Virus record (IMG/VR): IMGVR_UViG_3300009124_000001 | DNA length: 64,000 bases | Direction: 5' to 3' (one strand) | Origin: a virus | Part shown: positions 4,781 through 62,700 of the stretch, piece after piece | Layout of the letters: the number at the start of each line of letters is the position of its first letter | Numbering within the stretch: position 1 is the stretch's first letter | Position numbers and translations under genes: made by a program | The notes under the pieces: generated by a model | What the model was told of the DNA's origin: nothing | Databases searched by the model: none | The model's input: the letters and a program-made list of their open reading frames with translations, nothing else

Positions 4781-4815
4781 TTGCTTTTACTTAGGATAGG
4801 TGGATTGTTCTTAGA

Positions 4816-19870: not shown

Positions 19871-20669
19871 CTGTAAATTCACTATAAAGTTCATTGAATC
19901 CGAAGTTATCATCAGGATTCAACAGTGCATCATCAAGAGAGTTGATGTTGCCATCGCTGTTGAGATCCTCGGTTGCCTTTGGAGTAACCTGATAACGTAC
20001 TTCCCTGGGAGCAGTGGGTGCAGAGTCGGTAGCGTAATCGACAATTGCTTTCTTGATGATTTCGCCGCTCTTGTCCTGAATAGGACCATACAGGTAAGTC
20101 TTTGCTTGGAACTGCAATGTGTAGATCAAAGTACGACGTGTATCGAAATCACCTTCATATTGATCGTCGTAGTTGATAGATGTCAGAGTTACTGGATAGT
20201 CTCTCTTCTCTCCGAGATCTGGAACCAAGTTCATTGTGATATTGAAACTTGGTTGGAAGAATGGTAGGATCTGCTCAATGATTTGCAGAGCATCATCTTG
20301 CGCTCTGCTCAGGATTGCGAGTTCAAAATTGATGTTATATGGCACAGGCATATAACCCTTATTCGTTGTGTCACCAGTCGTATGTCTGATATACTGAGTC
20401 GGTGAGACTTTTCTTGTCGGGTCATATGTGATTGCTTGAATCTCAAATGCAATTCTAGGCAGTGTGATTTGCGTCTGATCCTTTTGAGTCAGGTCACCAA
20501 CTTGACGTAGACGTGCTAAGAATTTATCCTTAGGACCATATGCCAAAGGAACCTTCATAACCTCTGTCTTAGATCCAGAGGTTCTACGGATCTCGATATT
20601 ATTAAATAGTGTGCCAAAGGCAACGACGGTTTTTTTAATTACGCCGTGGTAAGAGTAGGTTCCTAGCAT
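19830..20669 (-). CDS. g15: Tail sheath stabiliser / completion protein gp15
   Basis: AFGTLFNNI, VPLAYGPK, LPRIAFE, QIIEQILPFFQP, KTYLYGP. Confidence 0.96.
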   Translation of the reverse strand: MLGTYSYHGVIKKTVVAFGTLFNNIEIRRTSGSKTEVMKVPLAYGPKDKFLARLRQVGDLTQKDQTQITLPRIAFEIQAITYDPTRKVSPTQYIRHTTGDTTNKGYMPVPYNINFELAILSRAQDDALQIIEQILPFFQPSFNITMNLVPDLGEKRDYPVTLTSINYDDQYEGDFDTRRTLIYTLQFQAKTYLYGPIQDKSGEIIKKAIVDYATDSAPTAPREVRYQVTPKATEDLNSDGNINSLDDALLNPDDNFGFNELYSEFTDGLSRNPVTGVDE

Positions 20670-39711: not shown

Positions 39712-39733
39712 CTTTAAGCAGTTACCTTCCTTT

Positions 39734-39739
39734 TATTTA
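39734..39739 (-). promoter_or_regulatory. Late promoter upstream of g8
   Basis: ATAAATAA followed by AGGAAGGT. Confidence 0.75.
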
Positions 39740-39745
39740 TGGGAC

Positions 39746-41593
39746 TTATTCTGGTTCAGTTCTGACCAGATTGGTGTATTCTTGCTTGGTGAATAGACCT
39801 GTTGCACCACTAGACTGACCAGCGATGGTATCTGATGTAGTGAATTTGTAAGTGTTGCCATTGTTAGTAATGTTGTTCACAGACAAATATGTGTAACCAA
39901 ACTCGTCTGCTTCACTGATGAACGAAACGACCGTTGCCGTAACACCTGTGCTGCTACCAGAAACAATCTCACCAACACTAAACAAAGTGCTGTTCCAATT
40001 CTTAATCTTCAAGGTAGATTCAGAGATGTGCTCAATACCATCACCCAAAAGACCAGCAACTGCAACAGATGCTGTTAGTGGGATAAGATTGGAGTCATAA
40101 ATCTGATCACCTTGTTGGAACAGAGTTGTGTTCTGTCCACCGACTGTTTCTTCAATACCATACAGTGAAGAAGCAATACCACCATCTAGACTGATAGCAT
40201 TTTCATAATCAGTATCAGTATTTACGAGGTCAATAATGCCATCACCTTCTCCGTCAAGTTCGTCGTTATCCTCAAATACAAATCCTTCCAGAGTGCTGAT
40301 TGGATCAGTAAAGGTGACGATACTACCAGTTTCACTTTCAAGGAGAACGTGAGGTTCAACACCCGTTCCAGAAGAACCAGCAACACCAGCAACAAACTGA
40401 ATAACAGCACTGCTCTCACTGGATCTACCACCGTCAATGAACGCCAGTTCATCAACTTCAAACGTTAAGAACAGTTCTCTGGTTTCGGGTCGCCAGTCAT
40501 ATACGATGGCAACTTTGTTGGTTTTATCTTCTTCGACTCTTCTGATTCTGTCGGCAACACTGAAAGCATATCCAGAGATGCCAGTATCAGGATTAGTTGC
40601 AAGGTTATCAAGAATCACACGCTGGTCATATCGGAAGTTGATACCTCTATCACAACCAGTAAAGGAGATTGCTGTCTTGCCTGTATATCTAATAAGCTCT
40701 CTACCAATCTGGAACTTACCAGATCCAGGGAACGCCTCTGTTGTTTCGACGTATAGAGTGCTATCAGCGGCAGCAGCATTTCTAATCAATGCTGTCATGT
40801 TGTAGAAGTCAGAGACGAGAGACGTTCTGTTTCTCTGTGCTCTGATCAGATTAGTATCACGAGTGAAGATAACCTGAGGAGCAGAAGTATATCCGCCACC
40901 AGGATTGAGTAGATTTATGCTAGCAATTTTACCGAGACTAATATCTGCCTTTGCTTCTGCACCAGATCCACCACCACCAATCAACTGAATAATTGGAGGA
41001 GTTTCAAAGAACTCACCAGCATTGCTAATGTCAATACTTTCAACTACACCAAACTGGTTAACATCAGCAACACCTGTGGCACCCTGTCCACCGCCACCAC
41101 TAATAACCAGAGTGATGTCTTCGCCAGAATAATTTCTACCAGTATTTTCAACTGAAAGACCCGTCACACTTCCAGTGACAGGAACAAGTTCTGCACCAGA
41201 TCCACCACCACCAACTAATCTGGCAGTTGCATTAAAGTAACCATCGCCAGGTTGATTGACTTGCAAAAAGTTGATAGATCCATCTTCTTTGAGATAGATG
41301 TTTGCATCAGCGGGAACAGTACCAGGATCATTACTCTCAATCAAAAGTCTGAGGGGATTGTATCCTTCACCAGGATCAACCACATCCACAGACAAAATTT
41401 CGCCATTATCAGCGATATTTGCTCTAAGAACTGCATCTCTGATTGGCGTACCGCAGTTAGATACAGTTAATCTAGGTGGATTATTGGGGTCATACCCACT
41501 ACCACCTTTAACTACAATAACGTCCTTAACGCCCTGTACGGAATTAAAGACTGGTTCAATTACTGCACCACTTCCAGGAACTGTTCTTGGCAT
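39746..41593 (-). CDS. Baseplate-associated structural protein with gp7-like GxGY repeats
   Basis: Repeated IxxxGxGYxxxPxxxxxGGGGSGA units, same type as in the giant gene. Confidence 0.8.
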   Translation of the reverse strand: MPRTVPGSGAVIEPVFNSVQGVKDVIVVKGGSGYDPNNPPRLTVSNCGTPIRDAVLRANIADNGEILSVDVVDPGEGYNPLRLLIESNDPGTVPADANIYLKEDGSINFLQVNQPGDGYFNATARLVGGGGSGAELVPVTGSVTGLSVENTGRNYSGEDITLVISGGGGQGATGVADVNQFGVVESIDISNAGEFFETPPIIQLIGGGGSGAEAKADISLGKIASINLLNPGGGYTSAPQVIFTRDTNLIRAQRNRTSLVSDFYNMTALIRNAAAADSTLYVETTEAFPGSGKFQIGRELIRYTGKTAISFTGCDRGINFRYDQRVILDNLATNPDTGISGYAFSVADRIRRVEEDKTNKVAIVYDWRPETRELFLTFEVDELAFIDGGRSSESSAVIQFVAGVAGSSGTGVEPHVLLESETGSIVTFTDPISTLEGFVFEDNDELDGEGDGIIDLVNTDTDYENAISLDGGIASSLYGIEETVGGQNTTLFQQGDQIYDSNLIPLTASVAVAGLLGDGIEHISESTLKIKNWNSTLFSVGEIVSGSSTGVTATVVSFISEADEFGYTYLSVNNITNNGNTYKFTTSDTIAGQSSGATGLFTKQEYTNLVRTEPE

Positions 41594-43097: not shown

Positions 43098-43103
43098 TAT
43101 TTA
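43098..43103 (-). promoter_or_regulatory. Late promoter overlapping the YHYH gene stop
   Basis: ATAAATAA. Confidence 0.7.
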
Positions 43104-44705
43104 TGTTGCGTCAAAAGAGATACTTGTAGTATCAAACTTAGTATCAGTAGACGAGAAGTCAACGTCTCCTTGACCATCACCAAATCCAGTAACGACAAGT
43201 GTCGCCACATCAGAAGTTAGTGGGGAGTTCTGTGCGGGAGTTACGCCAAGACCCAAAGGTCCACGAATCTCCACTCTATACTTATACCCAGACATATAGT
43301 TCAGGGCAGTAAACTGATATGTAGGATTAGTTGCACCAGTCAACACAGCGTAAGAGAATCCATTATCAGTAGATCTGTACCACTGATATGCCTTGGGACC
43401 ATCTTCGGGACTGACAGCAGCGGTAACACTAAATGTAACAGTCTGACCGACGTTAATGGTAACGTTCTGTGGTTGTAGAGCAATCTGCAAGGTTGCAGGT
43501 GCAGGAGGTTCACCACCACCTTGATCTGGTGGCGGCGGTGCAGCAGCACCATTGTTCGCTGGTTGGTCTAGCGTCTCACGGGTTGTAGAACCAATCAAAT
43601 ATGGAAATCTTGCTTGCAAGTTATTTTCACTGTCAAGTTCGCATGACAAGAAATATGCATAGGTGCCATCTTGAAATTCAGGAGTTATACAAAATCTACC
43701 ATTATGTGTATCTAGAATACCTAGACCCTCAGAATACTCCCAGTCCTGTATCAGAGATCCAGCAGGGGGGTTCTGCTGACTGTCACCGTAGATTGGTCTA
43801 CCAGGCACTTCTTCTGATTTAACTCTATAAGAAGTGCTAGCAATCGTTAGGTCAGAGTCATTGTCCCAAGGATCTGAATAACAATATGGACCATAGATGG
43901 GGAATCCATCAAACGCATAACCAAGAATCTTTGAATGACCATCAGGGTGTCTCAGGTTGTCACCATTGTACTGAGACGAACCATAATAATCATTATATGT
44001 AGACATAACAGAGTTTGCTTTCCAGCAATCAATGAAATGTGTGTCGTGGTAGTGATACTGTCCAGTGTTCTCGGGGTGTCCACCACAGTTGTCATCCCCA
44101 AAACTTACTGGGGATTCTTCATAGTGGGCGTTCCAGTTGAACCCTTGTGGGGGGTTGCCACCTGCCCCTGCGGAGGGATTAAAGAACACAACACCGTTAG
44201 CAGCAATACCAATAGCGCCAAGTGGAGTTTCTGTGCGACCATTACGTTGATCATAATAAGTGTATGTGCCATTATACCCTGATCTGGTGAATTCCATGAT
44301 CAGTTCTAGATACTGATCACTTGCTCTCCAAAACTCACCAGCAGTGGCAGTCTGCTCAGTGCCTCTGTAAACAAACACTTGCTTGTGTTCGTCGGGGGTG
44401 TTTGCGTCGAATACAAAAAGAATTCGATCACCAACTTGAATTTGATTGCCTAGTAGATCATTATCATCTACGGACAATGGGATTTGGATAAAGAATCCTT
44501 CATGCACAAAAGTGTTGTCATCGAAGGTTCTAGTAGTGCCAAATGTACCACCTCTATAATAGAAGTCATGCTCAAAATCCTGCTCAGTAACTTGATTGGG
44601 ATTATTGGCATTCGGGAACGTACCGTAGAGGACGGGATCTGGAAGACCATCGCCATCTACGGTAATAATTCTAGTGCCAGAGTTATATTCAGCGGTTGCT
44701 GTCAT
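43101..44705 (-). CDS. YHYH-domain protein with C-terminal Ig-like domain
   Basis: GAIGIAANGV, GGHP...GQYHYH, HSKILGYAFDGFPIYGP, LDTHNGR, YAYF, FPY; then QPQNVT...YQWY...Y Ig-like module. Confidence 0.9.
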   Translation of the reverse strand: MTATAEYNSGTRIITVDGDGLPDPVLYGTFPNANNPNQVTEQDFEHDFYYRGGTFGTTRTFDDNTFVHEGFFIQIPLSVDDNDLLGNQIQVGDRILFVFDANTPDEHKQVFVYRGTEQTATAGEFWRASDQYLELIMEFTRSGYNGTYTYYDQRNGRTETPLGAIGIAANGVVFFNPSAGAGGNPPQGFNWNAHYEESPVSFGDDNCGGHPENTGQYHYHDTHFIDCWKANSVMSTYNDYYGSSQYNGDNLRHPDGHSKILGYAFDGFPIYGPYCYSDPWDNDSDLTIASTSYRVKSEEVPGRPIYGDSQQNPPAGSLIQDWEYSEGLGILDTHNGRFCITPEFQDGTYAYFLSCELDSENNLQARFPYLIGSTTRETLDQPANNGAAAPPPPDQGGGEPPAPATLQIALQPQNVTINVGQTVTFSVTAAVSPEDGPKAYQWYRSTDNGFSYAVLTGATNPTYQFTALNYMSGYKYRVEIRGPLGLGVTPAQNSPLTSDVATLVVTGFGDGQGDVDFSSTDTKFDTTSISFDAT

Positions 44706-44718
44706 CGGACTTTTTGAC

Positions 44719-44724
44719 TATTTA
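44719..44724 (-). promoter_or_regulatory. Late promoter overlapping the stop of the giant gene
   Basis: ATAAATAG. Confidence 0.7.
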
Positions 44725-47700
44725 TTGGAAGATCTGAGTCGGGTTGAAGTTGCTGATGATAGTAGCACCAGTCTGAACTGTGAGGATCACAGAGTTGGAG
44801 TAGACAGGTGTAGCACCAGCAGCGGTGATAGCAACGCGGAATTCATCACCGTCATCTGCTTGTTCGGCAGGGTTGGAGTCATAGACGTTAGAAGTCTGAC
44901 CCGTGATGTTGTTCCAATCAGTTTCGCCATACTGCTTACGCTGCCACTGATAGTTCAGAGCGGTAGTTCCGATCTGGTTATCAGAGGACTGAATGAAGTT
45001 GGCGACAACGGTGAACTCAGCGGTCTGACCCTGGTTCACAGTCACGTTGGTGGGTTGTGATGCGATCTGGATATATCCAGGAACGATCACAATCGGATTG
45101 CCCTGAGGATCAGTACCCTCGCCAGCGTAGGTATCGAAACCTTGGTTGACGGCAGGACCAGTCGGGGGCACGAAGTCATCATCAACAGTAGTCTCAACTG
45201 CGACTGCTGGTTGTGCATAACCAACGCCACCAGTCTTCACGTCGATTCTTAGAATGCCCATCAAAGCACGAACACGACCATCGAAACCTGTGGCGGAAAT
45301 CACGTCCACGCTCGGGCGCGAGGTGTATCCATCACCAGGAGAAGTGATGATTGCTTCCGTAATCTCACCAGACTTGATGTTAGCGACTGCCTCAGCACCA
45401 CGACCTTTAACCGTGCCTGTGTACTCAAAGGTGATCAATGAGTTGGAAGACTCAATCAATGCAACTTCACGTTCGTCTGCCTCACCTTCGATTTGCAGGA
45501 TGTCGCCTGCTTCAATCGGAGGTACGACAGTTGCCGCGATCACGTCAGCGTCAGAACCGATGTAGGAGAAGGCAACGAACGTAGATCCTGCGCGAGGAAT
45601 CTCAGCGAAGATGATTCTAGAACCAACCAGTTCGTAACCAACGCCAGCTTCCTGAATCACACCATTGAGCGAGACGATAATGTTGTTCTCAGGCAGGATA
45701 GTGTTGGACGATACACCTTCCGTCAGAGTCAGGGAGTAGAAACCGCCCTGATACTTCAAGTTGAAGGACGAACGCAGAGAGTCAAACTCGAAACTGATGT
45801 CATCAAGTTGTCTCAGTTTACCCACGTAGTAACCGATAAATTCAGAACCGATGGTGGGTGGTTCAGTGAACTGAATCGAGTCAGAGAATGCCGTGTAGGC
45901 GTAGTTTGCACCAGGAGGTTGCAGCACACCGTTGACGAAAACGAGCAGGTGACCTGCGGGATCGGGGAAGTATGCTTCACCGTTGCTGACGGTGAGTTTG
46001 AAGGAAGTTGCAGTGCCATCGAAACCACGGAAGTATCTGTCGCAACGTGCGAGCAGGTTCTTCGATTGTGTAACACCAGCAGACCACCCATAGTCGGAGA
46101 TAATTGTCAGGTTAGAGGGGAAGTCGCCCACAACATCTTCCAACCAGATACGACCAGTGTCACCACTGATGGATTTGCCAGAAACCTTACCGTACGAAGT
46201 GTACTCAGTGACGGACACGTTGGAAATATCACACTGGATAACGGGGAAGTTATTCAGGTTTTCAAACTTACCAAGACCGCCCGAAAGGAGTTCATTGGGG
46301 TCTGTGGTCGTGTTGCCATCAGCATCAGCACCATAGGGTTGCAGGTTAGCGATCCAGATCTTGTGGATGCTGTTGTCGGGATCATAGAGATAATCGGTGA
46401 CAACGGCAGTCCAACCAGGAATCTTGGGAATACTTCCTTGCAGCAGGTAAACAAAATCACCCTTCTTGAAGTCGCCCGTGAAACCTTGGTCTCTCAGGAC
46501 AGTGTTGACATCACATTCGATAGTCTTGACCGCGTGTACATACTGATTGAGTTCAATGTCTCTGAAACTATCTCTGGTGATGTTGGCGATGTTGAGGATC
46601 TTGTCGGTGATAGAACCGTAGATGATATCGCCATCAATGAAGTCCTGTTCAAGAGTTTCAATGTCAATCGCAATACGACCGCCAGTGTTGCTAGTCAGAG
46701 AACCAGCAGAGTTTTCATAGGCGACGATATCTGCCTCAGCACCATTGGACTTGTTGAAGAGCATTTCATCAACGCCGAAGGATCCTCGCTCGGTGTTGAT
46801 CAGCATACGATCTCTGGCAGCAGAGGTAATTTCTGCTGTTTGGGCGCTATCAACACCTTCCAGGATATCGCTGACGGAGAAGGAACCAGTGATATTTTCA
46901 ACGTAGATCCAACCCTCATCCTCATTGTCACCCGTGAGGGGCGAAGTTTGAAGGACTGTGCCATAGTTTGTACCAGCACCTTGGACCTGAACTCTTTCAC
47001 CAATGTTGAATCTGCCAGTAGCAACACCAATATCAAATCTCTGATAGATCTTGATGATGTTTGCTTCGTTGTTTCTGGTGCGTACAATTTCAGATGTGGC
47101 GTTAGAGGAAGTACCCACAACCACGTCTGCGAGGCTAAACCCACCGCTTACAGGGTTGTCAATATCTCTGGTGCCATAGGTTGTAGTCGTACGAGTGATA
47201 CCAGAACGAACGTTCAGTTGCAGTTGTTGCTGACCAGTGGTAGCGAGGTTAACTGCAAACGGAGCAAATCTGGCATCGTGACGGATCTCCTTAGTGATCT
47301 CAAAGGCACTTGGAGTTGCGTTGAGCACATAGAAGTATTCCTGATCAGCAAACGCTGCCTCAACATCATTCGATGCAACAACATAGCTAAGGATGTCACC
47401 ACGCGAGTAGAAGTTCGGGCGATTGATAGTGATCTTGTTCTCTCTTCTCTCAAATCCAACTTCAACTGTCGGAGTATTGATAATCAGATCGGGGTCAGTA
47501 TTCCAGTCAAGACCTTCATCGTAAAGGTTCTGATTGTTAGTCGCATGGACGTTATTGGTCCACTGAATCTTGTTTTGAGACGGAGGCGTACCTCTGCTGA
47601 TAGCAAAGTATGCAGCATTCAGAGACGAATCAATCTTGAATTGGGTGGACTCAGGCTCGTACTCGTAACGATTTTCGATCGCATTCGTACCTTGGTGCGT

Positions 47701-50700
47701 GGGGTCAAGATAGATGTCATAACCATACCACTCACCACCAACTAAATTGTCATTGTAATCATCAAGGGCACGCTTGCAGTATTCGCTGATTCTTGTCACG
47801 AACCACAACAGATGTTGCTTTGTTACATCAGGGAACGCGATGAAGTTGCCTTCACCATCGAACCAAGTGTTAACGATTCTCAGAACACCTTGATTGCCGC
47901 CTGTGTTGAGGTCGTAAAGAAGACCACCAAGCAGTGTATCACCAAAAGATTCCTCAGCAGTAGTTGTGGGATATGCAGTCTGCACCTCAGCAAATGCCTT
48001 GGCAGAAATGGCATGTCTGTTGAAAAGGATTCTTCTAGCAACACTTCTGTCAGAATTGCTACCGCCACCAAGAGTGTCAAGCATCAGGTCGAAGAGAGAC
48101 TCGGCAGCAGAACTTACGTCATAGCAAGTGTAGAACTGATACTGGTTGTTGGTGTTGTATCCAACATCACGAGTGATGCCTGCAAGGTGACTGGAATTGC
48201 CAGCAGATGCCTCAGAGATAGTGTTAATAACAATGTCAAACAGTGTCTCAATTGTAGAGGCAGTTTGTGGGCAAGTCTCATTCCAGGCGGAAGCGGCACT
48301 GTCATAGGTAACGGTGGTGTCGCGTACGACCATTTCGGGAGCGTACTTAACAGGCCAGCAGTTGGGTAGAGACTTAGTGATAGTGCCGTCAGTAATGCTT
48401 GCGGGAGTGGTAATCGTATCAGTAACCACAGAGAAGAGATCTGTGATTGCAGATGCAACATCAGCACACTCATTGCCAGGATTCAGTGTATCCTGAGTAA
48501 CAACGTATCCACCTTGGTTATAGGGGAAGAAGTCAAGATCAGCGAAATACTTCTGAGAGAATCCATGAGCACCAGTGATGGTGATTGGTTGATCTCTCAT
48601 CACAGTGATAGCAAGGTCTCTTGCCTTATTAATGATCCAAATGGACTCAGTTGACTGTGAGGTGATGTGTGCAAGACTACCGTTGCTGACATAGAACTCA
48701 GCAGCACGGAACATCTTGTTGTTGCCACCAAAGCGGAGGTTCCAGACCATTGCATGAAGCATGTCAGTCACGTCATGGACGCAATTGATGTTGCCGCCAG
48801 GAATGACAAGACTTGGGAATTGTGCCAGACCCTGAGAAACTGCTTCCTCAGCAATCAGTCTGATGTTTCTCTCAATGATGTGAGAACCATCAATGAATCT
48901 ATCGTCAGTAGCATTCTGCTCGTATGTTGCAACATCAACAGCATCAACCGAGGATGTACCAACACCGCCAGGGTTAATTGCACCACCAGCACCACCTTCT
49001 GCCTGATAGATGTACAGGTTGTCGCGACCGAAACCATTACGCATCGTGAGGATGCAGATCTCCATTGCGATCTTGTACACGTCAATCGCTGCTTCTGCTT
49101 CTTGCTCAATGTGCAGCAAACTATCATCTTCTGGGTTCAGATAGAGGAGAGCAGCGTCATAAGTGGCAGAATTGCCGCCAAATCTTAGGTCATGGATAAC
49201 AGCGTCGATAACGCCCATCACGTCATCCTCACAGTTCTTAGAACCGCCAGGAATTGCCAGATCCAAATACTTGGACAGGTCATTCATTGTGTAAACTGCT
49301 TCCTTAGCAATCACATGCTTGTTCCTTTCAAGCATATTGGCAGCATCGATATTGTAGTTGGAAACAGTGTCCTGATAATCATAACCTTTGCTATCGATAG
49401 TGATAGTGGTGTCTCTGTATGCGGGGATTTCAGTGAACTGAGCAACATAGTAATCATCTTGCAGTTCGCTAGCGACGCCGAGTTCAGAAGAAGTAGTACC
49501 GAAGTTCAGCAGAGTGTTGCTAACTGCATGGAGAACGAGTTTCTTAACATAAGAGAAGGCGTCAAGCATTGCGCCCAGTTCATTCTCAACGTGAATGATT
49601 TCGTTATTGTTATTGATATAGAAATCAATTACATATTGAGTAGCGGAGTTGCCACCAGTGATCAGGTCCGTGATGACAGCGGGCAGGATGTATTCTTTAA
49701 TGTCACGAGCACATACTACATCGCCGTTGTAACCAGGGATATCAAGGAAGTCATACTGAGTATTGTTGATTTCTGCCGAATAGTAATCATTCAACCAACC
49801 GACAGTTTCATATGCGATATAGTCGCGATTCTTCCAGATCAGATCGCCAGCATCGCGGAATCTGTTACCTGTGGGACCGAGGATATCAGCGATAGTGTCG
49901 CAGAGCAGAACGACTTCATCTTGGATTGCCTGAGAGGCAGGAGATGCAAAGTTGTTAGGAATACGAAGGATATCAGTGTATTTGGTTCCGTTATAGTTAA
50001 CCAGATCAGTATCAGTTGTAGTAATAACATAGTTAATTACAACTGCCAGTTCAGTCCAAGTAAAGATGGATTGTAGCAGTTCGTTACCAACATAATTCAG
50101 ACCACCCTGCTTAGTGAGATAACCTCTACCAGCGATAACGCTATTGTAGTTACCACCATAACGCATGTCTTCGATGACTGCTTTGAGGATGTACTCCTTA
50201 GTATCACGCAGACAGAAGTTTGTACCTTGCTGGACGCCAGCACCATCAGCGGTGTCACCAGGCATCACGAAGTCAGGATACTTCTCCTTCATCAGACCAA
50301 CAGCAACCTCAGCAATCCAGTCGAGGTTCAGTTCGATCATATCAGCAGACTTGCGATACTCATCTCGTGCAAGGTTGATGTCTTCGACGATGATAGTCTT
50401 CTCATCGTAGTCAATACTCTTAGCGGTAGCAGAAGAGTTAGTCTGACCAGTGTAAGTTGCATATCTCTCTTCATTGCTGATGATGAGAGGCAACTCCATG
50501 CTCATGGAGAAACTGATATTTTGGTTGTCGGTCGGGAAGGTGAAACCAGGAGTGAATGTCTGACTGTAATCAGAAACACCCTTCTTGATGATGATGTTGT
50601 CCAGGTGACCAACAAATCCGCTAGCACCATTGAGGTCAGCACCAATCGTGAACGCACGTTCCAGATAGTTGTTATTGTCAGTGTAGTCGCCACCAACCTG

Positions 50701-53700
50701 AGATCCATTGACCCAGATCTTAGTGATGTTAGTGGTTCTGGTTACTGCAATATGATGCCAGGCGTTAGTGCCCAGTCCATGAGCAGCAGAGATCTGATCG
50801 CTACCGTTATACCACCATGCAATGTTGGCACCATTCAGGTAAAGAACAGGAGATCCATTCTCGGATGTGCCGCTAGTGCGAGTATCGAAGAGATACTGAA
50901 CACCAGAGATAGTCGTAGGTCTGACCCACATCTCAATGGTGAAGTCCTCAGTACCGAACTTCTGAACATCACTAAGTGTATGACTCAGATATGCACCAGC
51001 GTCAAGTCTGAGAGACTTAGTGCCAGATTTGTACTCCAAACCAGTCAGGACAGCACTACCGTTAGCGGTAAGTCTTGTATTAGTGATGTACTCTCTATTC
51101 TGGAAGATGCCTGTGATCGAATCAGTGAACAACCATTTCAGACCAGCGTTGGTTCCCTTGGCAGTGAAGGTAGCACCAGAGGTTGTGCCACTGATTGTTT
51201 CGCCAGGCAGGAAGAGACCATTAGCACCAGGATCCTTGTAGGAGATCTTGTAAACACGAAGGTTCTCATTCTCTTGGAAAGAACCATCACTAATCACTGC
51301 CAGAGCGTTGATGTTGTTCAGGTTACCTGCATTGATTGCCGTAGTAGCAATCGTGGTCAGAGTATCCAGAGCAGCCTGTACGTCAGCACAGTTGGCAGCG
51401 TCTTGGTTGTTGCCAGAGGCGTAGTTGGGATCATATGTATGACCCTCAGTAGGAGAGGTTAGATAAGGACCAGAATATGTGGTGGGATCGTAGACCAGAG
51501 TCAGATCCTTGTCATACAGCAGGTTGTTGATGGCAAGTTTTGCCATGTCTCTTGCCTTATTGAAGGCAGTGATGGACTCAGCAGTCTCACCAACCAGACC
51601 ATTGCTGATAGGAGCACCGTTAGCGTCGAAGTAGAACTTGGTGAAGGTTACAACACCATAGTTACCATCGCCCTTGATATCCTGAACCAGAGCATCAACG
51701 AAATACCCGATGTCACGACGACACTTGGTCTCATTGCTGCTATATGTGCTGGGTTCAGAGAGTTCGATCAGATCAGACAAGGAACCTGCGAGTAGAACCT
51801 CAGATACATTGTCGAACAGAGTTTGCAGGGCAGACTGAACATCCGAGCAGTTGTTAGCGCCGAAGTTATCAGCGTTGCTACCAGGAGTACCGTAAGGATT
51901 TCCAGGAGAAGGATCAGCAGTGATTCCAGTGCCACTAGAACCACCAGTGCTGCGCTCGTCATACAGGTTGTAGACAACAGCGTCAACGGTATCAGTGCCC
52001 GTCAGCATGTTGGTCAGAGCATTCTTCATGTATCCGAGTGCTTGCTCGAATGCATATTCAGTTGCTTCTGCTTCGTTGTTGATATACAGGAAGGTCAGAC
52101 CATCATCACTGAAATACATCTGCAAGAACTTGCGGGTGTAAACAGTGCCACCTTGGAACATGTCCATAGAGATAGCATCGATGAAGTGACCGATGTCACG
52201 ACGACACTTGGTGGGGGAAGGAATCGGCAAAGAAGGATACTGAACCACCATGTCAGAGTAAGACTTGGCGATGATGTAATCCTTATTGCGATGGATGAGA
52301 CGATATGCATCGGCATATCTGCTGAACTGGTCAGTCTGGTTATCGCCAGGATAGTAGAATCCAGGGTGCTGAACAGCGATTTCAGCATTAGCAAAGTCAA
52401 CAATTTCTTGCTTGTTAGCAGCGATTCTGTTGGCAGCGTCGAACCATCTGTTCAATGCATCAGTTACAGGATTTCCATAAGTAACGGTAATAGAACGAAT
52501 TACATCGCCAACTGCGATAGTGCCACCAGTCAGATTCTCAAATTCAACTTCTGTCGAGCGAACTTCTTCAAAGTCGAGGAAATCAGCGTTAACACGATCA
52601 CTGCTATCAAGAATCTCAACAGGTGTGATTGTGGTCTTAGAAATGTCATCCAGAATGACGTTCTGGTTAGTCAGAGAGATCAGACGCTCAAAGATCATAC
52701 CGAAGAAGGTAGAACCTTTGTTGATCGTCAGAGTATCAACCACGTCACCCAGTCTGACTTCGCCCGACACAGTTTCAGTGGTAGCGGTATAAGTTCTAAC
52801 ACCTGCAAATTCTGTATAGCCTTGAACAGTTTCACCATCGGTTAAATCAGTCTCACTATTCTTCAAGTAGTACAAAACAGGAGGGGATGCCTCAAAGTCA
52901 ATCTTGACAACTTCACCAGTAGCACCAGAGGTGATACCTTCAAACTTATCACCTTCAACCATGGTGGACCATGCACCAGCAGGCACAGGTCTTACCAGAT
53001 TGATGCTAACGATAGGATCTCTGTAAGGTGAGATACTGGTGATTCTTGCAGCAATATTAGATGCAGCAGAATAGAAGATGTCATTCAGGAACAAGTTATA
53101 CTGACCTGTCTCAAACTCAGCAGTACCAGAGGTCTTAGAAAGGACCAGTTTGTCGGAGATATTGCCATCCAGGTCGAGGTTAGATTCTTCAATGACGGCA
53201 GTATCACCAGTCATATTGGTGACAGTCTCGCCAAATTCAAAGATAGTCTTGTAGTTAACACTGTCAATGTTCAGGACATTTGCACCATACCCAGCATTGA
53301 AGAAGTTGATGTCCTCACCACGATCAAAGAATCCGTTGGACATATCTGTCACTTGGATGCTGTTATCAGTCAGATCGATAGAAGTAATAGTTGCTCTTGC
53401 ACCTGTGGTCTGACCGACAATGATGTCACCGATAAGACCTGTATCGAATGTACCACCAATGCTTTGGAGGAACAGTTTGGTGAAGGACTTTTCGATGGTT
53501 CCGATCAGAGCACTAAATCCAGTTCTATTAACATCAACACGCTCGTTCAGAGCAAAACTTCCACTGATATCAACAACATCAATGCTAGTAGCACCTGTTG
53601 CAACAACCTTAGCAGTAGTTTCGGTTTCAAAACCAAAGACATTATCACCGATTGAGGGGAAGATACCAGCAATACTATTCAAATTCAGTCTGGTGATAGG

Positions 53701-56700
53701 CATGAAATCGAAAGCGATATTTCGATATACAACCTTAGAGTCAGGTCTCGGTGGCTCAGAGAAGACAATCTCATTACCAACTACCTGATAGGAACTACCA
53801 GGAGACTGAATAACACCATTAATTGTGATGAGTAGTTGGTTATCCTTAACGATAACTTGCTCTCCCTCAACTCTCAGGGGGAAGTTCTTTTTAAGACCAT
53901 CGAATTGACCAGAGATATCGTCGATCTTCTTAACGATCGAGGTAAGAATTTCCTCAGAGTTGGTCAGTCTCTTCTTACGGAAGAGAACTTCGGAGTTGTT
54001 GAAGGTAGAGTAGATCGGTTGAGCAGCACCGAACGAGGTGATCTCGTTAACATTGGTGTACTCGTTGATGTTAACTTGCTTGGTGAAGTCAGCAGCAACC
54101 TTACGACCAGAGATATCTTTACCACCAGTCAGGGACAACTGACCGAACATATTGAAACCAACAGGGTGGTTATTTTGCAGAATCTGATTCTTCCATCTGT
54201 TGATAGGAATCTCAGACTTAATCACATAGGAGAAGTTCTGATAGAAGAAGGAGTCTTGAATCTTTTGAACAATCTCGGACGGTTTACCAACGTCATCAGT
54301 AAATCTACCAGCAGTCTTAGTAATAGCGTCAATGTTCAACACACCCTTAGCGATGTTGATATTGTCAATAACACCAGATGCACGAGAGATGACACCCTGA
54401 ACCTTGCCACCAACTAAGAAGTCTCCATCGGGGTTGGTAACTTTCAGAATCTTAGGTTCGATCTGCCAACCATCATTAATCGAGACAATACCAGTTGCAG
54501 TTGCGAGTTCGCGAGTCTCACCTTGGAACACTTCCTCACCTTCCAAGAAGCGAGAGGTCTCAACCACTGCTTCTGCTTTACCACCGAACACCTCGGTAAG
54601 AAGCACCTGACGACCAGCACCCTGAGTCAAGAAGGTAATGAAGTTGCCAGACTCGGCGTCAACAGGTGTCAGAGCGAAGCGCAGTTGGTCAGATTCCAGA
54701 CCATTAACTTCACCAGCAATAGCATAGTAGGTCTGAGCAGAAGACAGACTGGTCAAACCAACGCTGCTGGGTTTCGGCAGTTCACCAACGGTAGAACCAA
54801 TAGCATCAGCACGGAACTGAACCTCAGCGCCAGTGGTAATACCATGAGGGAAGTTGAACTGCAAGTAGTTCAGGTCGAGGTTCACAACGTAGGTGAACTC
54901 AGATTTCAGAGTAACATTCGGTTGCGAAGAGTACCCAGCACCAGGGTTCTTGATCAGAATCTCAGACAGTCTGTTGTTCTTAACGACTGCTTCTGCTTCG
55001 GCACCAGTACCGCCACCGCCAGAAATGATAACAGCAGGTGCAGAGGTGTAACCAGCACCAGGATCTGTAATTGTAATCTGAGAGAGGATCGAGGTATTGA
55101 AGAGTTGCAGGTTGATCGGGAATGCGATCTCAGGACGCAGAGTGTAGTCATGAGAGTAACCATAACCAAACTCATTGTTTTTCAGAGTCTTGATCTTACC
55201 GATTTGCTTACCAGTGAGGAACACAGCAGCGCCAGTACCCTCAGCAGGAATGACAACCTGAATCTCAGCACCAGAACCAGACAGGGTGGGACCAAGAATA
55301 CCTTGAATAGCATCAATGTCGATAGAACCGAACGTATATCCCTTACCAGGATCAGTCAGAGCAACCTGAGTAACAGTTCCAGATCCAATAATATCATCAT
55401 TCTCAACGGTGATATTGCAAAGACCACCTTCACCATCACCCAGAATAGAAACCTGAGTATATACGCCAGGTGCATATTCAGTACCACCAGAAAGGATACG
55501 CAGTTTCTCAATCTTACGATCAGATGCAATATCAGAGATGATGGGCAGTTTCTTATAGAATCCACCAGGAGAGATCAACTTAATAGAGTTGATAGGACCA
55601 ATTGCTTTCTTGGAAGTGGTGGAGTAGATAGTATTGGATTTGTCTTGGTCGTCCAGACCGATCTCAGCATTGTTGAACTCAGGCTCATACAGCAGCGGGA
55701 ATCTGAATTCAGTATCGCTAAGAACTTCGCTGATTTGGAATCTACCGTCATACGGAGTCTTGATAACGTCGATGAAGGAGTTAGATCCCACAGGAGACGT
55801 TGCACCAGTTCTGGACGGGTCGAAGTAGTAAGTAATGTTAGTAACTTCACCACCAATCGTGAACTTAACCACAGGTGTTTCTGCGGCAGAAGACAGACCA
55901 GGAGTGCCCTCACGCTCAATTACGTTGAAGGAGTATTCCAGTTTGAATTGGTTATCTTGTGCAAACGACAGATAATAACCAAAGTTGGAAGAATCACTCA
56001 GGTCAAAGATATATGAGTGATTTCTTACCAGCAGGAGTGTTGGGTGCTTGGAAGAGATCTTCACACGAGAAATAGCACCCTGAGCGAATGCAGGTTCGCC
56101 AGTAGCAATTGTTCTCAGTTTATAGGTAAAGTCTCTGGTAGAGAAGACTTCCTTAACGAAGAACGAACCATTAAACTCAGCAGTAGTGAATCCTTCAACA
56201 AACAAAATGTCTTTTGCTTTGAAGTTGTGAGGAGTCAATGCAGAACAATAAATGAGGTCAGTTCTGTTCTCAGCAGTTCTGATAATGTCCTTATTCAGAT
56301 TTACAGTCAAAGTAATTTCTTTGACGCTTGCAAGACCAGAGACCTCAGCAATCTTATTGTCAGTATCTGCCTTAGGTCCAGCATTGATGCTGTTGCCCAA
56401 GGACACAACGTCACCAATAATAAAGTCAGAACCAGCGTATGTATTGACAATGGTTACTCTATAATCTGTCAGCGTGAATGGACGGAATCTTGCATAGTCG
56501 GAAAGTGGATCATATGTACTAACGAAGTTCCAGGTGACGGATCCGTCAGCAGCACTACCCGTGGTGTGAGATGGTCCAACAGTGCCAGATACACCACCAG
56601 TTGCACATGTATACTTATTTCTACCAAAGTAGACAACATCACCAGCAACATATGTAGTTGTTGCAATCCACTCGGGATCAGTAGGAGCAGGCCATGGGAA

Positions 56701-59700
56701 GTCAGCAAGGTTAACTTCAATGTTAGGTGCTGCACTGATGTAGGACCAAAGGACAGCGCCATCGGTTACAATACCAATCTCATGTGTGGGTGCAGTGGAA
56801 CCAGAAGTTGCATTGTTTGTAGCAGAGTAAATCTTACCATCGCTCCAAACTTGATCATTCACAACATATGCCTTACCTGCTTCCCAAGCATTCTGAGCAC
56901 GCTTTACAGTAAAGGAAATTTCGTCAATTGTGTTTTCTTCTTCCTTGTCATTCTTAAAGAGGTCATCATTGTTAAAGGTTCCAAAGATCTTACCAACCTT
57001 ATAGGTTGTACCATAACCAGGAGTGTTAACACTTCCAACAGGAACATCTACAATGGTGCCAAATGCCTGAACAACGCCATTCTCATTGTACTGTTGAAGG
57101 ATAGATCCTTTCTCAAACTTAACTGCCTGATTGAAGACAAACTCCTTAACAGCATCAATCTTCTGATAACCAGCGTCTCTGATGTAATACTTCGGCAGAA
57201 CCACAGGTTCAATTTTGAGTTTTCTACCCAGAGGGGTAGGAATAGTCGATGTCTTAGTTGAGAAGGTATGTCTCTGAGTATTGAATGTATATGTTCCAGG
57301 TGCAAGGGTAGAAACGACATCAGAGAAGTCAAGGATTTGCAGACCCGAAGGACCTTCATTCCAAACGGTAATTACAGGATTGGAGAGTGTATTAACATTG
57401 AGAGTTGTGTTTGCTGTGAAGGAGATACTCTCAGTGTAGTTGCCATCATATCCAGCGAAGGTGGTGTTGTAATCACCTCTCTTGCTGTGCAGACGATCAA
57501 ACTTAACCAAATCGAGCGCAGAATCCTGAGTTGTAATTCTATAACGCTCAGTGGGCACTTGCAGAGAAGAACCACTATAAACTGCACGGGATTCGACGAC
57601 AATATCATCGATGTTGCCGACAAAACTGTTGTTCAGAAGAGGACCTGCTTCTTGACCACCAACAACCAGATCATTCATCGAAATTTCATCGACAACTGTT
57701 GCAGTTGCAACATTTACGCCATCGAAGTAGCAAGAATACACATAGGAACCGAGAGAGGGTTCTTCCTTGACCAAAGCAATATGGTGCCAGTCGCTATCTG
57801 CCAAAGTAGTAGCATAAGTCGAACCAATCGACCAAACAGTAGTGGTGCTACCGCCAGAAGGTGCAATTTCAAGTGCAATCTTACCAAAGTTGCCATCACC
57901 AGAATCAAGGTTCATAATGTACTGAACGGTGCTGCCAGAATCATCTTTGGCAGTAATCATCTCAATTCTGGGATTGTTGGTCCCATGAGTAGGTGCCATA
58001 CGGACCCACATCACATTTGTCCACTGTTCAGTCAAATTCAGGTCGGTCCACTTCAAATAGTTGGCATCTGCAACATTCAACGAATTTGCGCCAAATTTGA
58101 AGATAGAAGAGTCCTGAGAAACGGCACCGCCGTCATATACGCTAATTGTTGACTTATTCTGCTTAGTATCGTCAAAAGTGAGTACAGCGTTCTCAAATCT
58201 ATGTACAACCTCTTGAATGGGGTGTTGGAGGTTCAGTGGGAGAATAATATCACCAGAGTTGTCAACAGCATGAGTATTGGCAGTAAAACCAATGCCAGTA
58301 TCACTGCTGCTGCCATTCCATTGACCACGGGTCACATTTGTAGTATACAGAGAAGTTCCGTCATACTTGAATCCAGAAATGACTGCTTGCTGGTCATTAT
58401 CTTCATATACAACGTTAGTGACAACGTTAACATTGCCAAATACATCCAGAGAGACCCCAGCGTGCTTGATAGACTCAAAAGTGACCGTGGGTGCCATGAT
58501 CTTGGCAAAATCCCACTCAGGAGTCGCAACAGTCAGTCTGATTTGATCCAGGGCGATCTTGAAGAAGGCAACACCATAATTCTTGGTGCCATTCCACATA
58601 TCGCAGACAAAGAACAGATCATTGTACTCATCGAGAACAAATTGAGGTCTTTGAACGTCACCACCAGAAACTGCAAGACGTTTGACATATTTAAGTTCAA
58701 TATTCGCACCGTCATACTCCATGACGCCGAACAGAAGATCATTATTGTCTTCATCAATACCACAGAAGGCAACTTGATTGTCACCAAGGTAATACAGTTG
58801 ATGCATCTGCTCACCTTCGGTTTCAGATGCAAATTTACGCTTTTCAACTACATCACCTTGATTGTTGAGTTGCATGACCCAGATATCATCGGGATCGGGA
58901 GAGTTAGTGTCGGTCCAACCGCAAATATAGACTCTTTGCTCTTCATCCAGGTAGATATCACCAGCATAGTCGCGACGAGTCGTACCAGACACACCAGCAA
59001 TCTCTTTCTGGAATCTTACAATACCTTCGGGGTTGTTAGCATTGTCCAGACCAGACTCATACTTAGCAACCAGGATATCGGGGTTGTAATTAGCAGTTCC
59101 TTGGGATTCAGTTTCACCAATCAGGTAAATGAGATGATTAGATTCGGATGTCTGGTCAAGATACATCTTCTTCCAACGTGCAGTCTTGATGGATGCACTA
59201 GGAAGCAAAGATCTGTCCCAAACGAGACTACCGAGGTCATTATACTTGGCAAGGAATGCTGCACTGTCACCATTCGGTTGAAGGATCTCACCACAAACAT
59301 ACAGATTACGATCATCAGCAACAACTGAGTCGTGAATCTTGATTTGACAGTTTGTCTGAGTCTCAGAGTAGATTGTAGACCAATAATAAGTCTTCTTGAA
59401 CTTCTGGGGATGTGATACGCGAATTTCAGGAGGAATTTCAGTATCGTAGTTGAAACCAGAGTTGATAATATTAACTTTATCGATCTTACCTGTCGTTACA
59501 TCCAAATCAATATCAAGTTCAACGTCTTGACCACTGGTTGTAATGATTTCGTAGGTTGGAGGAATAGATTCGTTGTAACCAACACCAGTTTGCAGGACAT
59601 TGATGGAATCAATGCCTGTGACCACAGACATATAGAATCTCTTGTTGGTATTCTCTGTAATGACTCTGGAACTAACGATAACTTCGTCTTGGGCGATCAG

Positions 59701-62700
59701 TTCGTGATCTGTTTCTGTTGTAATTCTTCCGTAGGGGATGTCGTTGATGACTTCCTTTCTATATTGAGAAATTGCAGCACCTTGAACAGATTCAACTTGT
59801 GCGCTAGCGCCAAAACCATCCGTTCCAGTGTTATCGAAGAAGAGAGTATCAGTAACCTGATAGGATACACCAGGATTCTCAATAACAAATCCATCGATCT
59901 GAGCATTCTCAAATTTCGTTGTTGTCTCAACTTCGATATCGACTCTGGACTCTGTTGAAACTCTTGGGAAGTAATCATAGATTTGAAGTGCTGCTTCCTC
60001 AGTTAACGCCTGATCTGTGGCGATTTCGTTGGGAGAAATGATACCATCATTATCTATATCTTCTGTTTCAAACAGAATCAAGAATCCTTCCTTCTCAGTA
60101 ACCAACTGATCGGACTGTTGGTTGGGTTGACGATCAATATCAATGTCAACATCCTCATAAGGATCTCTATAACGAGAAACGTCAGAAGGAATGTTTTCCT
60201 GAGTGGCATTCAGACTGACGTTCCAAGTGTCAACCACAGAGTTGAATTCGGGACCAATGATATACGGGAACACAGGCAGACCTGCTTCCGAAGCATCAAT
60301 AGTGATGAAGTATGCATAGATGCCATCAGGATACTCAGGAGTCTTACAGAAACGACCATTGTAGGGGTCAAGGTCACCTTCTTGGAAGGTGTACTCATAG
60401 TCATCAATGAACTGACCAGCAGGGTAGTCAGTCAGAGAGGGACCATCGACACGAGCGGGATTTGGGTTGGTGTCAATATCATATACAACGTTTGTTTTCA
60501 GTTTGTAGGAAGAACGCATTCTTCTGATACCACCATTCTGATCGGTGGGATCGATATAACCATAAGGACCATAGATCGGGTTACCATCAAATGCCCAACC
60601 AATAATCGGGGAGTGACTGATGGACGCGCCAGTCTCAGTACCCTCTTCAATAAATTGATTGTTTTCGGGGTTCAGGATAACGTTATCACCGACTACATAA
60701 CGCAGTTCTTTCGGATCGGAAACGTGAGCATATTCGCCACCATACTGGTTGTTGAAACCAGTGAACACATAACCACGAGCAACGTCATACTTGTTACTCA
60801 GTTCATATTCAACGTTCTTGTTCCATCTAAACACAGATGCTTCAAACGTTGCAAGTTGTCCAACTGCTTCCAATCTGACAGTAGTGTTACCTTGGGTGTA
60901 ACCAACACCTCTGTTGGTAATTTGAATAGAGATAACCTTACCCTTATCTTCACCGAGGGTTCCGATAACTGCCTTTGCTTGGGCACCGAAACCATCACCA
61001 TTGATGTATACAGTGGGTGCAGTGGTGTATGCAGTACCAGAGTTAATGATAGCAATCGAAACGATACGACCATTAATAACGATTGGTTGTGCCAGGGCAC
61101 CTTCACCAGAGTTTAACTTAATGTTGGGAATATCAGTGTAACCGCTGCCTCGGGCGGTAAGGGTAACACCCGTGATTGGACCACGAACTTGGGCAGTAGC
61201 AAGGGCACCAGCACCGCCACCACCAGTAATAGAGATAGTGGGTTGTGCTGTATATCCAGTACCAGGGTTACCGACCAAAACACGAGTCACACGACCGTTG
61301 GTAACAACTGCTTGTGCAGTAGCACCAGATCCACCACCACCAACGATGGAGATCAGAGGTTGCGAGGTATAACCACTACCTTCATTAGTAACTTCAATAG
61401 AACTCAGGGAACCATTAACGATTACCTCAGCAGCAGCACCGCTACCACCGCCACCAGTGATTTCTAGTTGTGGTTTGCTACCAGCATCATAGTCAATACC
61501 ACCATTAGTGATGCTAATGCCAGTCACAGGACCATATGTAACAAACTCTTGGTCTTTGTAAGACCATGCTGCAACGCCATTGACCCATGCACCAATCGGA
61601 GTGTTGGGTTTGACAACAGTTCTAGTAGATACAGTATTTACTGTTCTGGGGAATCTCAGCAGTTTGCGCTGGTTACCAGGAATGAGTGCCGATCCACTGA
61701 AAGGACCAATCTTGTAGTTGGGCAGACCAGAGGCAGCAACGTAAACGTAATCGTTATTGAAGAAAGTGTTCTGAATGTTAGAAGTAAACAGAGAGATCAC
61801 TTCATCGATCGTGTCCTGTGTGGACTTACCTCTGTTTAGGTCCACAGACAGCAGAATGTTACCCTGAGGTTCGATGTCAGTAGGAACAGGGATCAGATAC
61901 GAGAAGGTGAACTCATCCAGACGTGCAGTAACTTCAAACGTACCGTTATAAACAGCAGGGTTAGCACCATAGATGGTCACAGCGTCTTCGACGAGCAAAC
62001 CATGAGGATTGGCGCAAGTAACAGTTGCAGTTCTGTTCAGACCGCCTGGTTCAATACGATCAACGCGGATTAGTTTCTTAACGTTGTACAACCAAGACTG
62101 CAAACGTTGATCATCAGCAGTAGAACCCAGAGCAGCAACATTCAGTTTGTCGCCAGGCAGATAATAGGATCCACTGTCTTCGAGAACAGTTGTTGCTGCC
62201 TCAGCAATACCCAGAATACGAAGTTTGACTTCTGTTTCCAGTCCTCTGTTGACATATACAAAGATATCAGAATGGATCGTTGTACCAGGATCCCAATCCT
62301 CTACAATGCCATTTTTGGAACGAGTACACTCGATGAATTGGTTCAGAGACTTATCTTTGTACTGAACAACCTCACTATCATCAATAATGATCGTACCGTT
62401 CTTCTCAGGCCATCCAATAGTGGAGTCAACGGTAATAATGCTCTCGGTAGTGTCCAGAGGTTCAACCAAGACTGTTTTGTAGGGAATCTTAAACTCACCG
62501 CTCAATGTTTCTTCGGAAATGGCGAGTTCGTAGATAACATCAGTACCTTCGATAATCGAAATGACATTTTCGATCAAAACTGACGCATCTTTGATATTCT
62601 GGTCAACAGGATCAGCAATTTGAACCAACTGAGCGTTAGTCAGGTTGACGGGATCACCAGAAATCAACTGAGCACGCAAAATAGTGTCTACGACCCAAGA

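Follow-up and report, generated by a model that had tools for sequence, protein, structure and literature searches.

The motif C-x-R-D is the chromophore-binding motif of the phycobiliproteins (PBPs) and of BBAG-1 and BBAG-3, and the BBAGs attach bilins without lyases (Rockwell et al. 2023, PMC10151467). At the second bilin site of PBP beta subunits, beta-Asp39 forms hydrogen bonds with the pyrrole nitrogens of the beta-153 bilin (PMC6614406). The T-type lyases (CpcT/CpeT) act specifically on beta-Cys155 (consensus numbering; PMC2327270). A gene for such a lyase, cpeT, is found in 12 of 16 cyanophages analyzed by Sullivan et al. (2010), who called its role unresolved since the phages do not carry cpeE, cpeS or cpeR (PMC3037559); in other work phage CpeT is attributed to the maturation of host phycoerythrin (PMC10452541). 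The subject here is a tandem array of PBP-like domains encoded by a giant open reading frame in the IMG/VR virus record IMGVR_UViG_3300009124_000001. The whole 64,000-nucleotide (nt) stretch of DNA that was analyzed is termed the window. A full-text literature search found no description of these phage PBP-like domains.

Phycobiliprotein Homologs in a Giant, Probable Baseplate Protein

A preliminary description, made from the sequence of the window alone, had pointed to about seven helical repeats in a protein likened to the phage baseplate protein gp7. A search with a self-derived profile shows seven helical domains of ~140 amino acids (aa), termed R1–R7, at aa positions 3889–5449 (nt 47653–52335), together with a half-copy, R0. 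The six cysteine codons that had been quoted are all in place (Table 1).

The segment at aa positions 3800–5500 displays a similarity of 53.8 bits to the Pfam family PF00502 (E = 2.9e-14; cut-off 22.2 bits). R1 alone gives 32.6 bits, encompassing profile positions 32–140 of 155. R3 and R6 alone give 13.6 and 15.9 bits, which is under the cut-off, and the remaining copies join via the family profile only. The segment KCRRDIGHF of R1 is aligned by phmmer to CpcA at Cys84. A profile of 133 copies, each from a different protein, was compared with all sequences in the Protein Data Bank (PDB) and matched PBPs only (130 sequences, best E = 8e-7), with the Cys aligned to Cys84 of CpcA. A second profile, of 32 copies, also matched only PBPs (E = 2e-7), and here the Cys was aligned to Cys84/82. 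The phycocyanin sequences given in the preliminary description agree with those retrieved.

The AlphaFold model of R1 (pLDDT 81.7) covers PBP residues 28–149, i.e. helices A to G. Using VIA-align, it shows Z = 13.5 to PBP chains, with a root mean square deviation (rmsd) of 1.7–2.2 Å over 102–109 residues; Foldseek alone gives an E-value of about 7e-3 and TM scores of 0.45–0.58. R6 was modeled together with the helix that follows it (aa positions 5029–5206; pLDDT 87.9, pTM 0.85), and the helix is packed confidently on the domain. This model aligns with PBP beta chains at Z = 16.9 and an rmsd of 2.2 Å over 137 residues, encompassing residues 31–177 of phycoerythrin (PE) or 31–172 of phycocyanin (PC), and among the matches listed it aligns to beta chains only. 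The 50 entries listed for each VIA-align run are all PBPs except 8u0f, titled “Bacterial fluorescent protein”. The helix set in the models is of the globin type, A to G(H), and helix H is missing from most copies in the family. The phage domains are closer to PBP beta subunits than to alpha subunits, and they score best against true PBPs, not photoglobins.

Pfam, the PDB profiles, the models and the alignment at Cys84 agree. Profiles and predicted structures show that the seven domains are PBP homologs of globin fold, derived from beta subunits; the protein that holds them is probably a gp7-like baseplate protein. The central proposal of the preliminary description, that PBP-derived domains with bilin-type cysteines are present in a baseplate protein, is borne out.

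The X-Y hairpin of PBPs has no counterpart ahead of any copy, and matches begin at profile position 30–32 or chain residue 28–33. Assembly of the phage domains into (alpha-beta)3 discs or rods is unlikely because this hairpin is absent and the array is fused. The missing hairpin also bears on the idea that the protein is a decoy or mimic directed at the host, which would bind phycobilisome partners (linkers, lyases, NblA-type adaptors) inside or at the cell. The domains do derive from host antenna proteins, and cyanophages are reported to manipulate phycobilisomes via NblA (PMC12695635). However, the hairpin is needed for PBP assembly, the gene is part of a baseplate block, and related proteins carry the annotation of virion structural protein. 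In a T4-type infection baseplate proteins are expected to remain outside the cell, which also counts against a decoy. Such a function is considered extremely unlikely.

Two Candidate Bilin Sites

An exhaustive profile search for relatives (E < 1e-3) yielded 1130 representative proteins with the domain, mostly of 2000–7000 aa; conservation was determined from the 150 best of these together with the protein of the window. There are up to 28 copies per protein when the top 150 are re-scored, and 34 matched stretches in the raw search. Over 1534 copies, the C-x-R-D motif is conserved at 92% (Cys), 88% (Arg) and 94% (Asp), with a mean column identity of 19%. By this measure of conservation the first bilin-type site is under strong selection.

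According to the preliminary description, the repeats match the order and spacing of all elements of the bilin-binding motif. This holds for R1–R4, which display C-x-R-D, but R5 (NCEDD) and R6 (NCVHD) are without the Arg, and R7 is without the Cys. The C-x-[DH]-D variant of R5 and R6 occurs in phages P-HM1 and P-HM2 as well. All three copies in phage P-SSM4 are, like R7, without the Cys82-type Cys; thus the fold can serve without it.

These properties bear on the main rival explanation, structural co-option. Here a captured host PBP beta fold would be reused as a spacer or shaft module that carries no bilin, with Cys, Arg and Asp kept for folding, packing and inter-domain contacts. The 28–34 tandem copies in giant proteins are spacer-like, the X-Y hairpin is lost, helix H is lost in most copies, and R7 and the P-SSM4 copies work without the Cys. 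However, packing alone does not readily account for such high conservation at exactly the three bilin-contacting residues when the mean identity is low, and in PBPs these residues point into the chromophore pocket rather than the core. The domains, which are extracellular, have one or two lone cysteines each, far apart in the PBP fold, and disulfide pairing is therefore unlikely.

A second site is suggested by a helix of ~28 aa, which in many copies follows the domain after about 14 residues and has the consensus n-x-x-x-C-[AS]-[DN]-V-x-[ST]-A-[IL]-x-T-L. The helix profile was rebuilt without the Cys and Asp columns to avoid circularity, and with this profile Cys is found at the helix position in 151 of 162 helices (93%) from 56 proteins. 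The model of R6 with its helix aligns to beta chains through residue 172/177; thus, in model and sequence alignment, the trailing helix is PBP helix H and its Cys aligns with beta-Cys153. In the model, Cys5178 is 19 residues ahead of the last aligned residue. In the 172-aa CpcB, beta-Cys153 is 19 residues ahead of the C-terminus (74 CpcB sequences from cyanobacterial genomes), and the spacing is identical for beta-Cys158 of the 177-aa PE beta subunit.

An hhalign comparison of the two-Cys subfamily with the 74 CpcB sequences (probability 93.9%, E = 1.5e-7) aligns the phage Cys to the Cys of G-D-C, with moderate posterior confidence, and also pairs phage Asp9 with beta-Asp39 and Asn17 with beta-Asn47. 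With HMMER, alignment of the two-Cys profile to PBPs extended over no more than its first ~65 positions, and the helix H register is taken from the structural end-point pairs and the hhalign profile alignment.

The position that corresponds to beta-Asp39 is Asp in 66 of 67 copies with a Cys helix behind them vs. 172 of 839 copies without one. The per-protein mean fraction of Asp is 0.96 (n = 46) with the helix and 0.17 (n = 102) without it. A second bilin-site signature is shown, at the level of sequence and model, to be kept alongside the first. Within the window, the complete two-site domains are R1 (Asp3897 and Cys4051) and R6 (Asp and Cys5178), while R2 has the helix with Cys4204 and is without helices A and B. 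Like the first site, the further Cys at the beta-153 position and its covariation with beta-Asp39 are hard to reconcile with structural co-option, as packing alone would not readily explain them. The H-type helix with a beta-Cys153-like Cys is new here.

Two side observations concern the domain itself. Half-copies that consist of helices A and B only (profile positions 2–38) recur upstream of full domains in many phages, e.g. S-PM2 (56044–56403), and sometimes there are two or three of them in a row. In addition, helix E has conserved phage-specific residues that PBPs do not share, with Asp found at Cys+9 in 73% and at Cys+14 in 92%, and Asn at Cys+20 in 78%, e.g. aa positions 3941, 3946 and 3952 of the window protein. 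These might constitute a metal site or an inter-domain contact.

CpeT, Light-Dependent Adsorption and a Possible Pigmented Virion

With R3–R6 as the tblastn query, 353 phage records were matched; 352 are Synechococcus or Prochlorococcus phages and one is labelled only “Marine”. About 464 records are cyanomyovirus-like by gene 23 (g23). The PBP-like domains are absent from a Pelagibacter phage whose g23 is 67% identical. A broader tblastn query had also yielded matches in Caulobacter, Pseudomonas and Vibrio phages. These were gone with the query restricted to R3–R6, which left out a Laminin_G_3 stretch among other parts, and for this reason the Laminin_G_3 stretch was probably their cause.

Phages S-PM2, P-HM1 and P-HM2 need light to adsorb, a requirement that in S-PM2 does not depend on photosynthesis by the host, while P-SSM2 adsorbs in the dark; light-sensitive tail fibers have been suggested as the mechanism (PMC6628666). 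Copies with C-x-R-D are found in S-PM2, P-HM1 and P-HM2 and none in P-SSM2.

Synechococcus phage S-WAM1 is the closest record to the window (89% nt identity across the region) and was used as a proxy for the gene content of the whole genome of the window's virus. It has an open reading frame of the CpeT family (165 aa). Heme oxygenase and bilin reductase were not found in S-WAM1.

Thirty complete genomes were scored for the domain, the helix and CpeT. IMG/VR contigs did not enter this comparison, as only 2 of 80 that bear g23 were longer than 150 kb. CpeT and the helix are concordant in all 30, with 23 positive and seven negative. In ACG-2014f the C-x-R-D domains are present and both the helix and a convincing CpeT are absent. 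P-SSM4, which has lost the Cys82-type Cys, has kept a C-S-D-V helix as well as cpeT. S-SM2 and S-SSM7, held-out cpeT-negative phages of the 2010 list, are without domain, helix and CpeT. Syn1 is without a CpeT-like gene in Table 3 of the 2010 study (Sullivan et al.); however, this genome (NC_015288.1, positions 19950–20462) has a clear open reading frame of the CpeT family (187 aa, 119.6 bits) and also has the helices. As a side observation, S-SSM4 (HQ316583.1, positions 49448–50728) has three variants of helix H in which C-x-N-V replaces C-x-D-V, and a very divergent CpeT-like open reading frame of 155 aa (22.9 bits summed).

Fisher tests of co-occurrence (24 and 30 genomes, p = 0.003 to 5e-7) were rejected as evidence of linkage, as there are only one or two independent pairs on the g23 tree. 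This tree groups P-SSM2, S-SSM7, S-SM2 and ACG-2014f in a single supported clade and places the remaining negatives on long branches at its base. Because the independent contrasts number only one or two, the links of the domains to cpeT and to adsorption could reflect shared ancestry. The co-occurrence of cpeT and helix is suggestive only: it is compatible with a functional link and is no demonstration of one.

The explanation favored here is that the virion is pigmented. Most copies would receive a host-made bilin, phycoerythrobilin or phycocyanobilin, during infection on the C-x-R-D Cys that is equivalent to Cys82/84. Attachment at this first site would either involve an S-type lyase of the host or proceed by self-assembly, as it does in the BBAGs. 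In copies with helix H (R1, R6 and probably R2), the phage T-type lyase CpeT would attach a second bilin to the Cys that corresponds to beta-Cys153. Some tens of bilins would then be present at the baseplate of the virion. Their most likely use would be light-dependent control of baseplate or fiber conformation and hence of adsorption, and this is the weakest step.

The support for a pigmented virion is circumstantial and consists of motif conservation, the beta-153-like site, the T-type lyase, the restriction to cyanophages and one adsorption contrast. The parts of the proposal differ in strength. Judged from sequence and models, chromophorylation of the phage domains is moderately probable. 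The complete explanation, i.e. a PBP-beta-derived array with bilins at both sites and with light-controlled adsorption, is put at an even balance between right and wrong. That CpeT acts on the helix H Cys of the phage domains, a proposal that is new as far as the literature search reached, is tentative and somewhat doubtful. Light-gated adsorption through these pigments would be an unlikely outcome. There is a similarly small chance for the most far-reaching version, in which cyanomyovirus virions are biliproteins, cpeT serves the phage's own virion protein, and the pigments are the adsorption photoreceptor and the first light sensor built into a virion.

A number of points weigh against pigmentation or against parts of it. 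The literature searched offers no experimental indication that any cyanophage virion is pigmented. At the first site, R7 and the P-SSM4 copies are without the Cys and R5 and R6 without the Arg, and no phage lyase for a Cys82-type site was found. At the second site, the alignment of helix H is of moderate confidence only at the sequence level. The covariation of Asp39 with the helix is between subfamilies and is not seen between copies within proteins, 34 of 39 proteins having equal Asp frequencies. On the g23 tree the match between domain and adsorption is a single contrast, and the seven genomes negative for cpeT and helix need approximately two changes (one is possible), i.e. one or two independent contrasts. 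Bilin synthesis genes were rejected as partners of the domain, since PF05996 is found in 6 of 20 domain-positive vs. 2 of 4 domain-negative genomes (p = 0.58). P-SSM2 makes bilins and has no PBP-like domain. An S-type lyase is known from cluster C phages (PMC10665884), one of which, S-H34, is without the PBP-like domain; thus a phage lyase need not have a phage substrate. As a separate observation, the T4-like Pelagibacter phage Mosig (MT647606.1, positions 39713–40231) has an open reading frame of the PF05996 family of ferredoxin-dependent bilin reductases (E = 1.5e-18) and is without the PBP-like domain, CpeT and the helix.

Structural co-option is in keeping with the unreported pigment and with cpeT and phenotype links that shrink to one or two contrasts. 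Together with the evidence from the two sites, these leave it a substantial rival, with a chance that is appreciable and clearly below even. A further possibility is that bilin is bound for a purpose other than sensing: photoprotection or quenching at the baseplate, stabilization of the fold (as in holo-PBPs), or sequestration of host bilin. The evidence for chromophorylation would apply here too, and PBPs are antennae, not photoswitches. BBAGs bind bilins and are weakly fluorescent and photo-inert, with no known role (PMC10151467). The DNA in the head would however gain little shielding from a few tens of bilins located at the baseplate, and a non-sensing purpose is considered quite improbable.

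A pigmented virion would bear on several questions. One is why cpeT is found in most T4-like cyanophages when the other genes of the host cpeESTR operon are absent; phage CpeT would gain a target, namely a phage virion protein. Another is why S-PM2, P-HM1 and P-HM2 adsorb in a light-dependent manner although photosynthesis by the host is dispensable. Bilins on the virion would make it a biliprotein of a new kind and perhaps the first virus particle to be photoreceptive, with a bearing on the daily rhythm of infection among the main primary producers of the ocean. Even without pigment, the capture of a host antenna fold and its tandem expansion (1130 representative proteins, up to about 30 copies) is a notable exaptation. 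The array also bears on the building blocks of giant mosaic baseplate and fiber proteins.

The Window and Comparison with Known Systems

The window displays a structural-gene block of a T4-like cyanophage, with a UvsW-like helicase, g23, g22, g20, g18, g17, gp8 and fiber connectors. The giant open reading frame runs off the window (Table 1). Its ortholog in S-WAM1 has 6737 aa and is annotated as a baseplate wedge initiator/virion structural protein. Parts of the giant protein match PHROG families annotated as baseplate wedge subunit, and the Pfam Baseplate_wedge family gives 18.4 bits, under the 27-bit cut-off. The weak CBM_5_12 match may, from its sequence, represent a glycan-binding element of the baseplate protein. 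The gene at positions 43101–44705, next to the giant open reading frame, has the same YHYH segment by PHROG matches.

Table 1. Positions of the giant open reading frame and of the domains and helices found in it.
Feature	nt positions	aa positions	Strand	Cys codon (nt)	Remarks
Giant virion protein	44722–63999		minus		single open reading frame, open at its 5′ end and running off the window; >6425 aa
YHYH domain (PF14240)	60292–60744	1086–1236	minus		101 bits
CBM_5_12 chitin/carbohydrate-binding match	56803–56889	2371–2399	minus		weak, 23.7 bits, slightly below the 26.2-bit cut-off; two stretches
R0 half-copy	52336–52467	3845–3888	minus		helices A–B only, no Cys; profile match
R1 PBP-like domain	51910–52335	3889–4030	minus	52204–52206	K-C3932-R-R-D; Asp3897 matches beta-Asp39
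H-type helix behind R1	51772–51861	4047–4076	minus		N-N-C4051-S-D-V; Cys is candidate equivalent of beta-Cys153
R2 partial domain, helices E–G	51481–51735	4089–4173 (profile match 4056–4203)	minus	51721–51723	K-C4093-R-R-D
H-type helix behind R2	51313–51402	4200–4229	minus		A-N-C4204-A-D-V
Laminin_G_3/concanavalin-like lectin domain	50593–50979	4341–4469	minus		61.4 bits, cut-off 27.6; inserted between R2 and R3
R3 PBP-like domain	49918–50376	4542–4694	minus	50212–50214	F-C4596-L-R-D
Variant helix behind R3	49864–49923		minus		L-C4700-D-T-I
R4 PBP-like domain	49396–49878	4708–4868	minus	49711–49713	V-C4763-A-R-D
R5 PBP-like domain	48970–49371	4877–5010	minus	49231–49233	variant N-C4923-E-D-D, Arg replaced
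R6 PBP-like domain	48511–48915	5029–5163 (profile match to 5174)	minus	48781–48783	variant N-C5073-V-H-D
H helix of R6	48391–48480	5174–5203	minus		N-E-C5178-A-D-V; packs on R6 like PBP helix H in the model
Two more H-type helices ahead of R7	48049–48288	5238–5265 and 5288–5317	minus		variant T-C5243-P-Q-T and T-C5292-Y-D-V, respectively
R7 PBP-like domain without Cys motif	47653–48069	5311–5449	minus		Ala, Glu and Ser in place of C, R and D

The protein resembles gp7 of phage T4 in its PHROG matches and in its gene position: in S-WAM1 the gene order is gp25, gp6 and then the ortholog of the giant protein, with gp8 downstream. It differs from T4 gp7 in being a mosaic with YHYH, CBM_5_12, Laminin_G_3 and PBP-like domains, and its length is about six times that of T4 gp7.

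The domains share with PBP beta subunits (CpcB, CpeB and cryptophyte PE/PC beta) the helices A–H, Cys82-x-Arg-Asp, the G-G that closes helix E, Asn47, Asp39 and, in the beta-Cys153/158 position, a Cys at the N-terminal end of helix H. Unlike these subunits they have no X-Y hairpin, and alpha-beta pairing of the PBP type is not expected. The loop from P-G-G-N to the Cys is shorter, and most members of the phage family are without helix H. PBP beta subunits are free proteins of 17–20 kDa, whereas the phage copies are fused in tandem in a virion protein of >6400 aa and their chromophorylation is a prediction from sequence and models.

BBAGs, compared here by description only, also represent a PBP fold outside the phycobilisome, and BBAG-1 and BBAG-3 share C-x-R-D with the phage domains. 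They are free-standing bacterial proteins encoded beside genes for heme oxygenase and ferredoxin-dependent bilin reductase. In contrast, the phage domain is fused in a virion protein, and S-WAM1 has neither of these genes. In smURFP, crystallized with biliverdin, the match to the profile starts at residue 3 of the chain, and this protein is thus apparently also without the X-Y hairpin.

The phage CpeT compares with the auxiliary metabolic gene of the literature in being present in S-WAM1 and in every scored genome that has a Cys-bearing H helix. The difference is in the substrate, which in the literature is host phycoerythrin and in the present proposal would be a virion protein of the phage itself.

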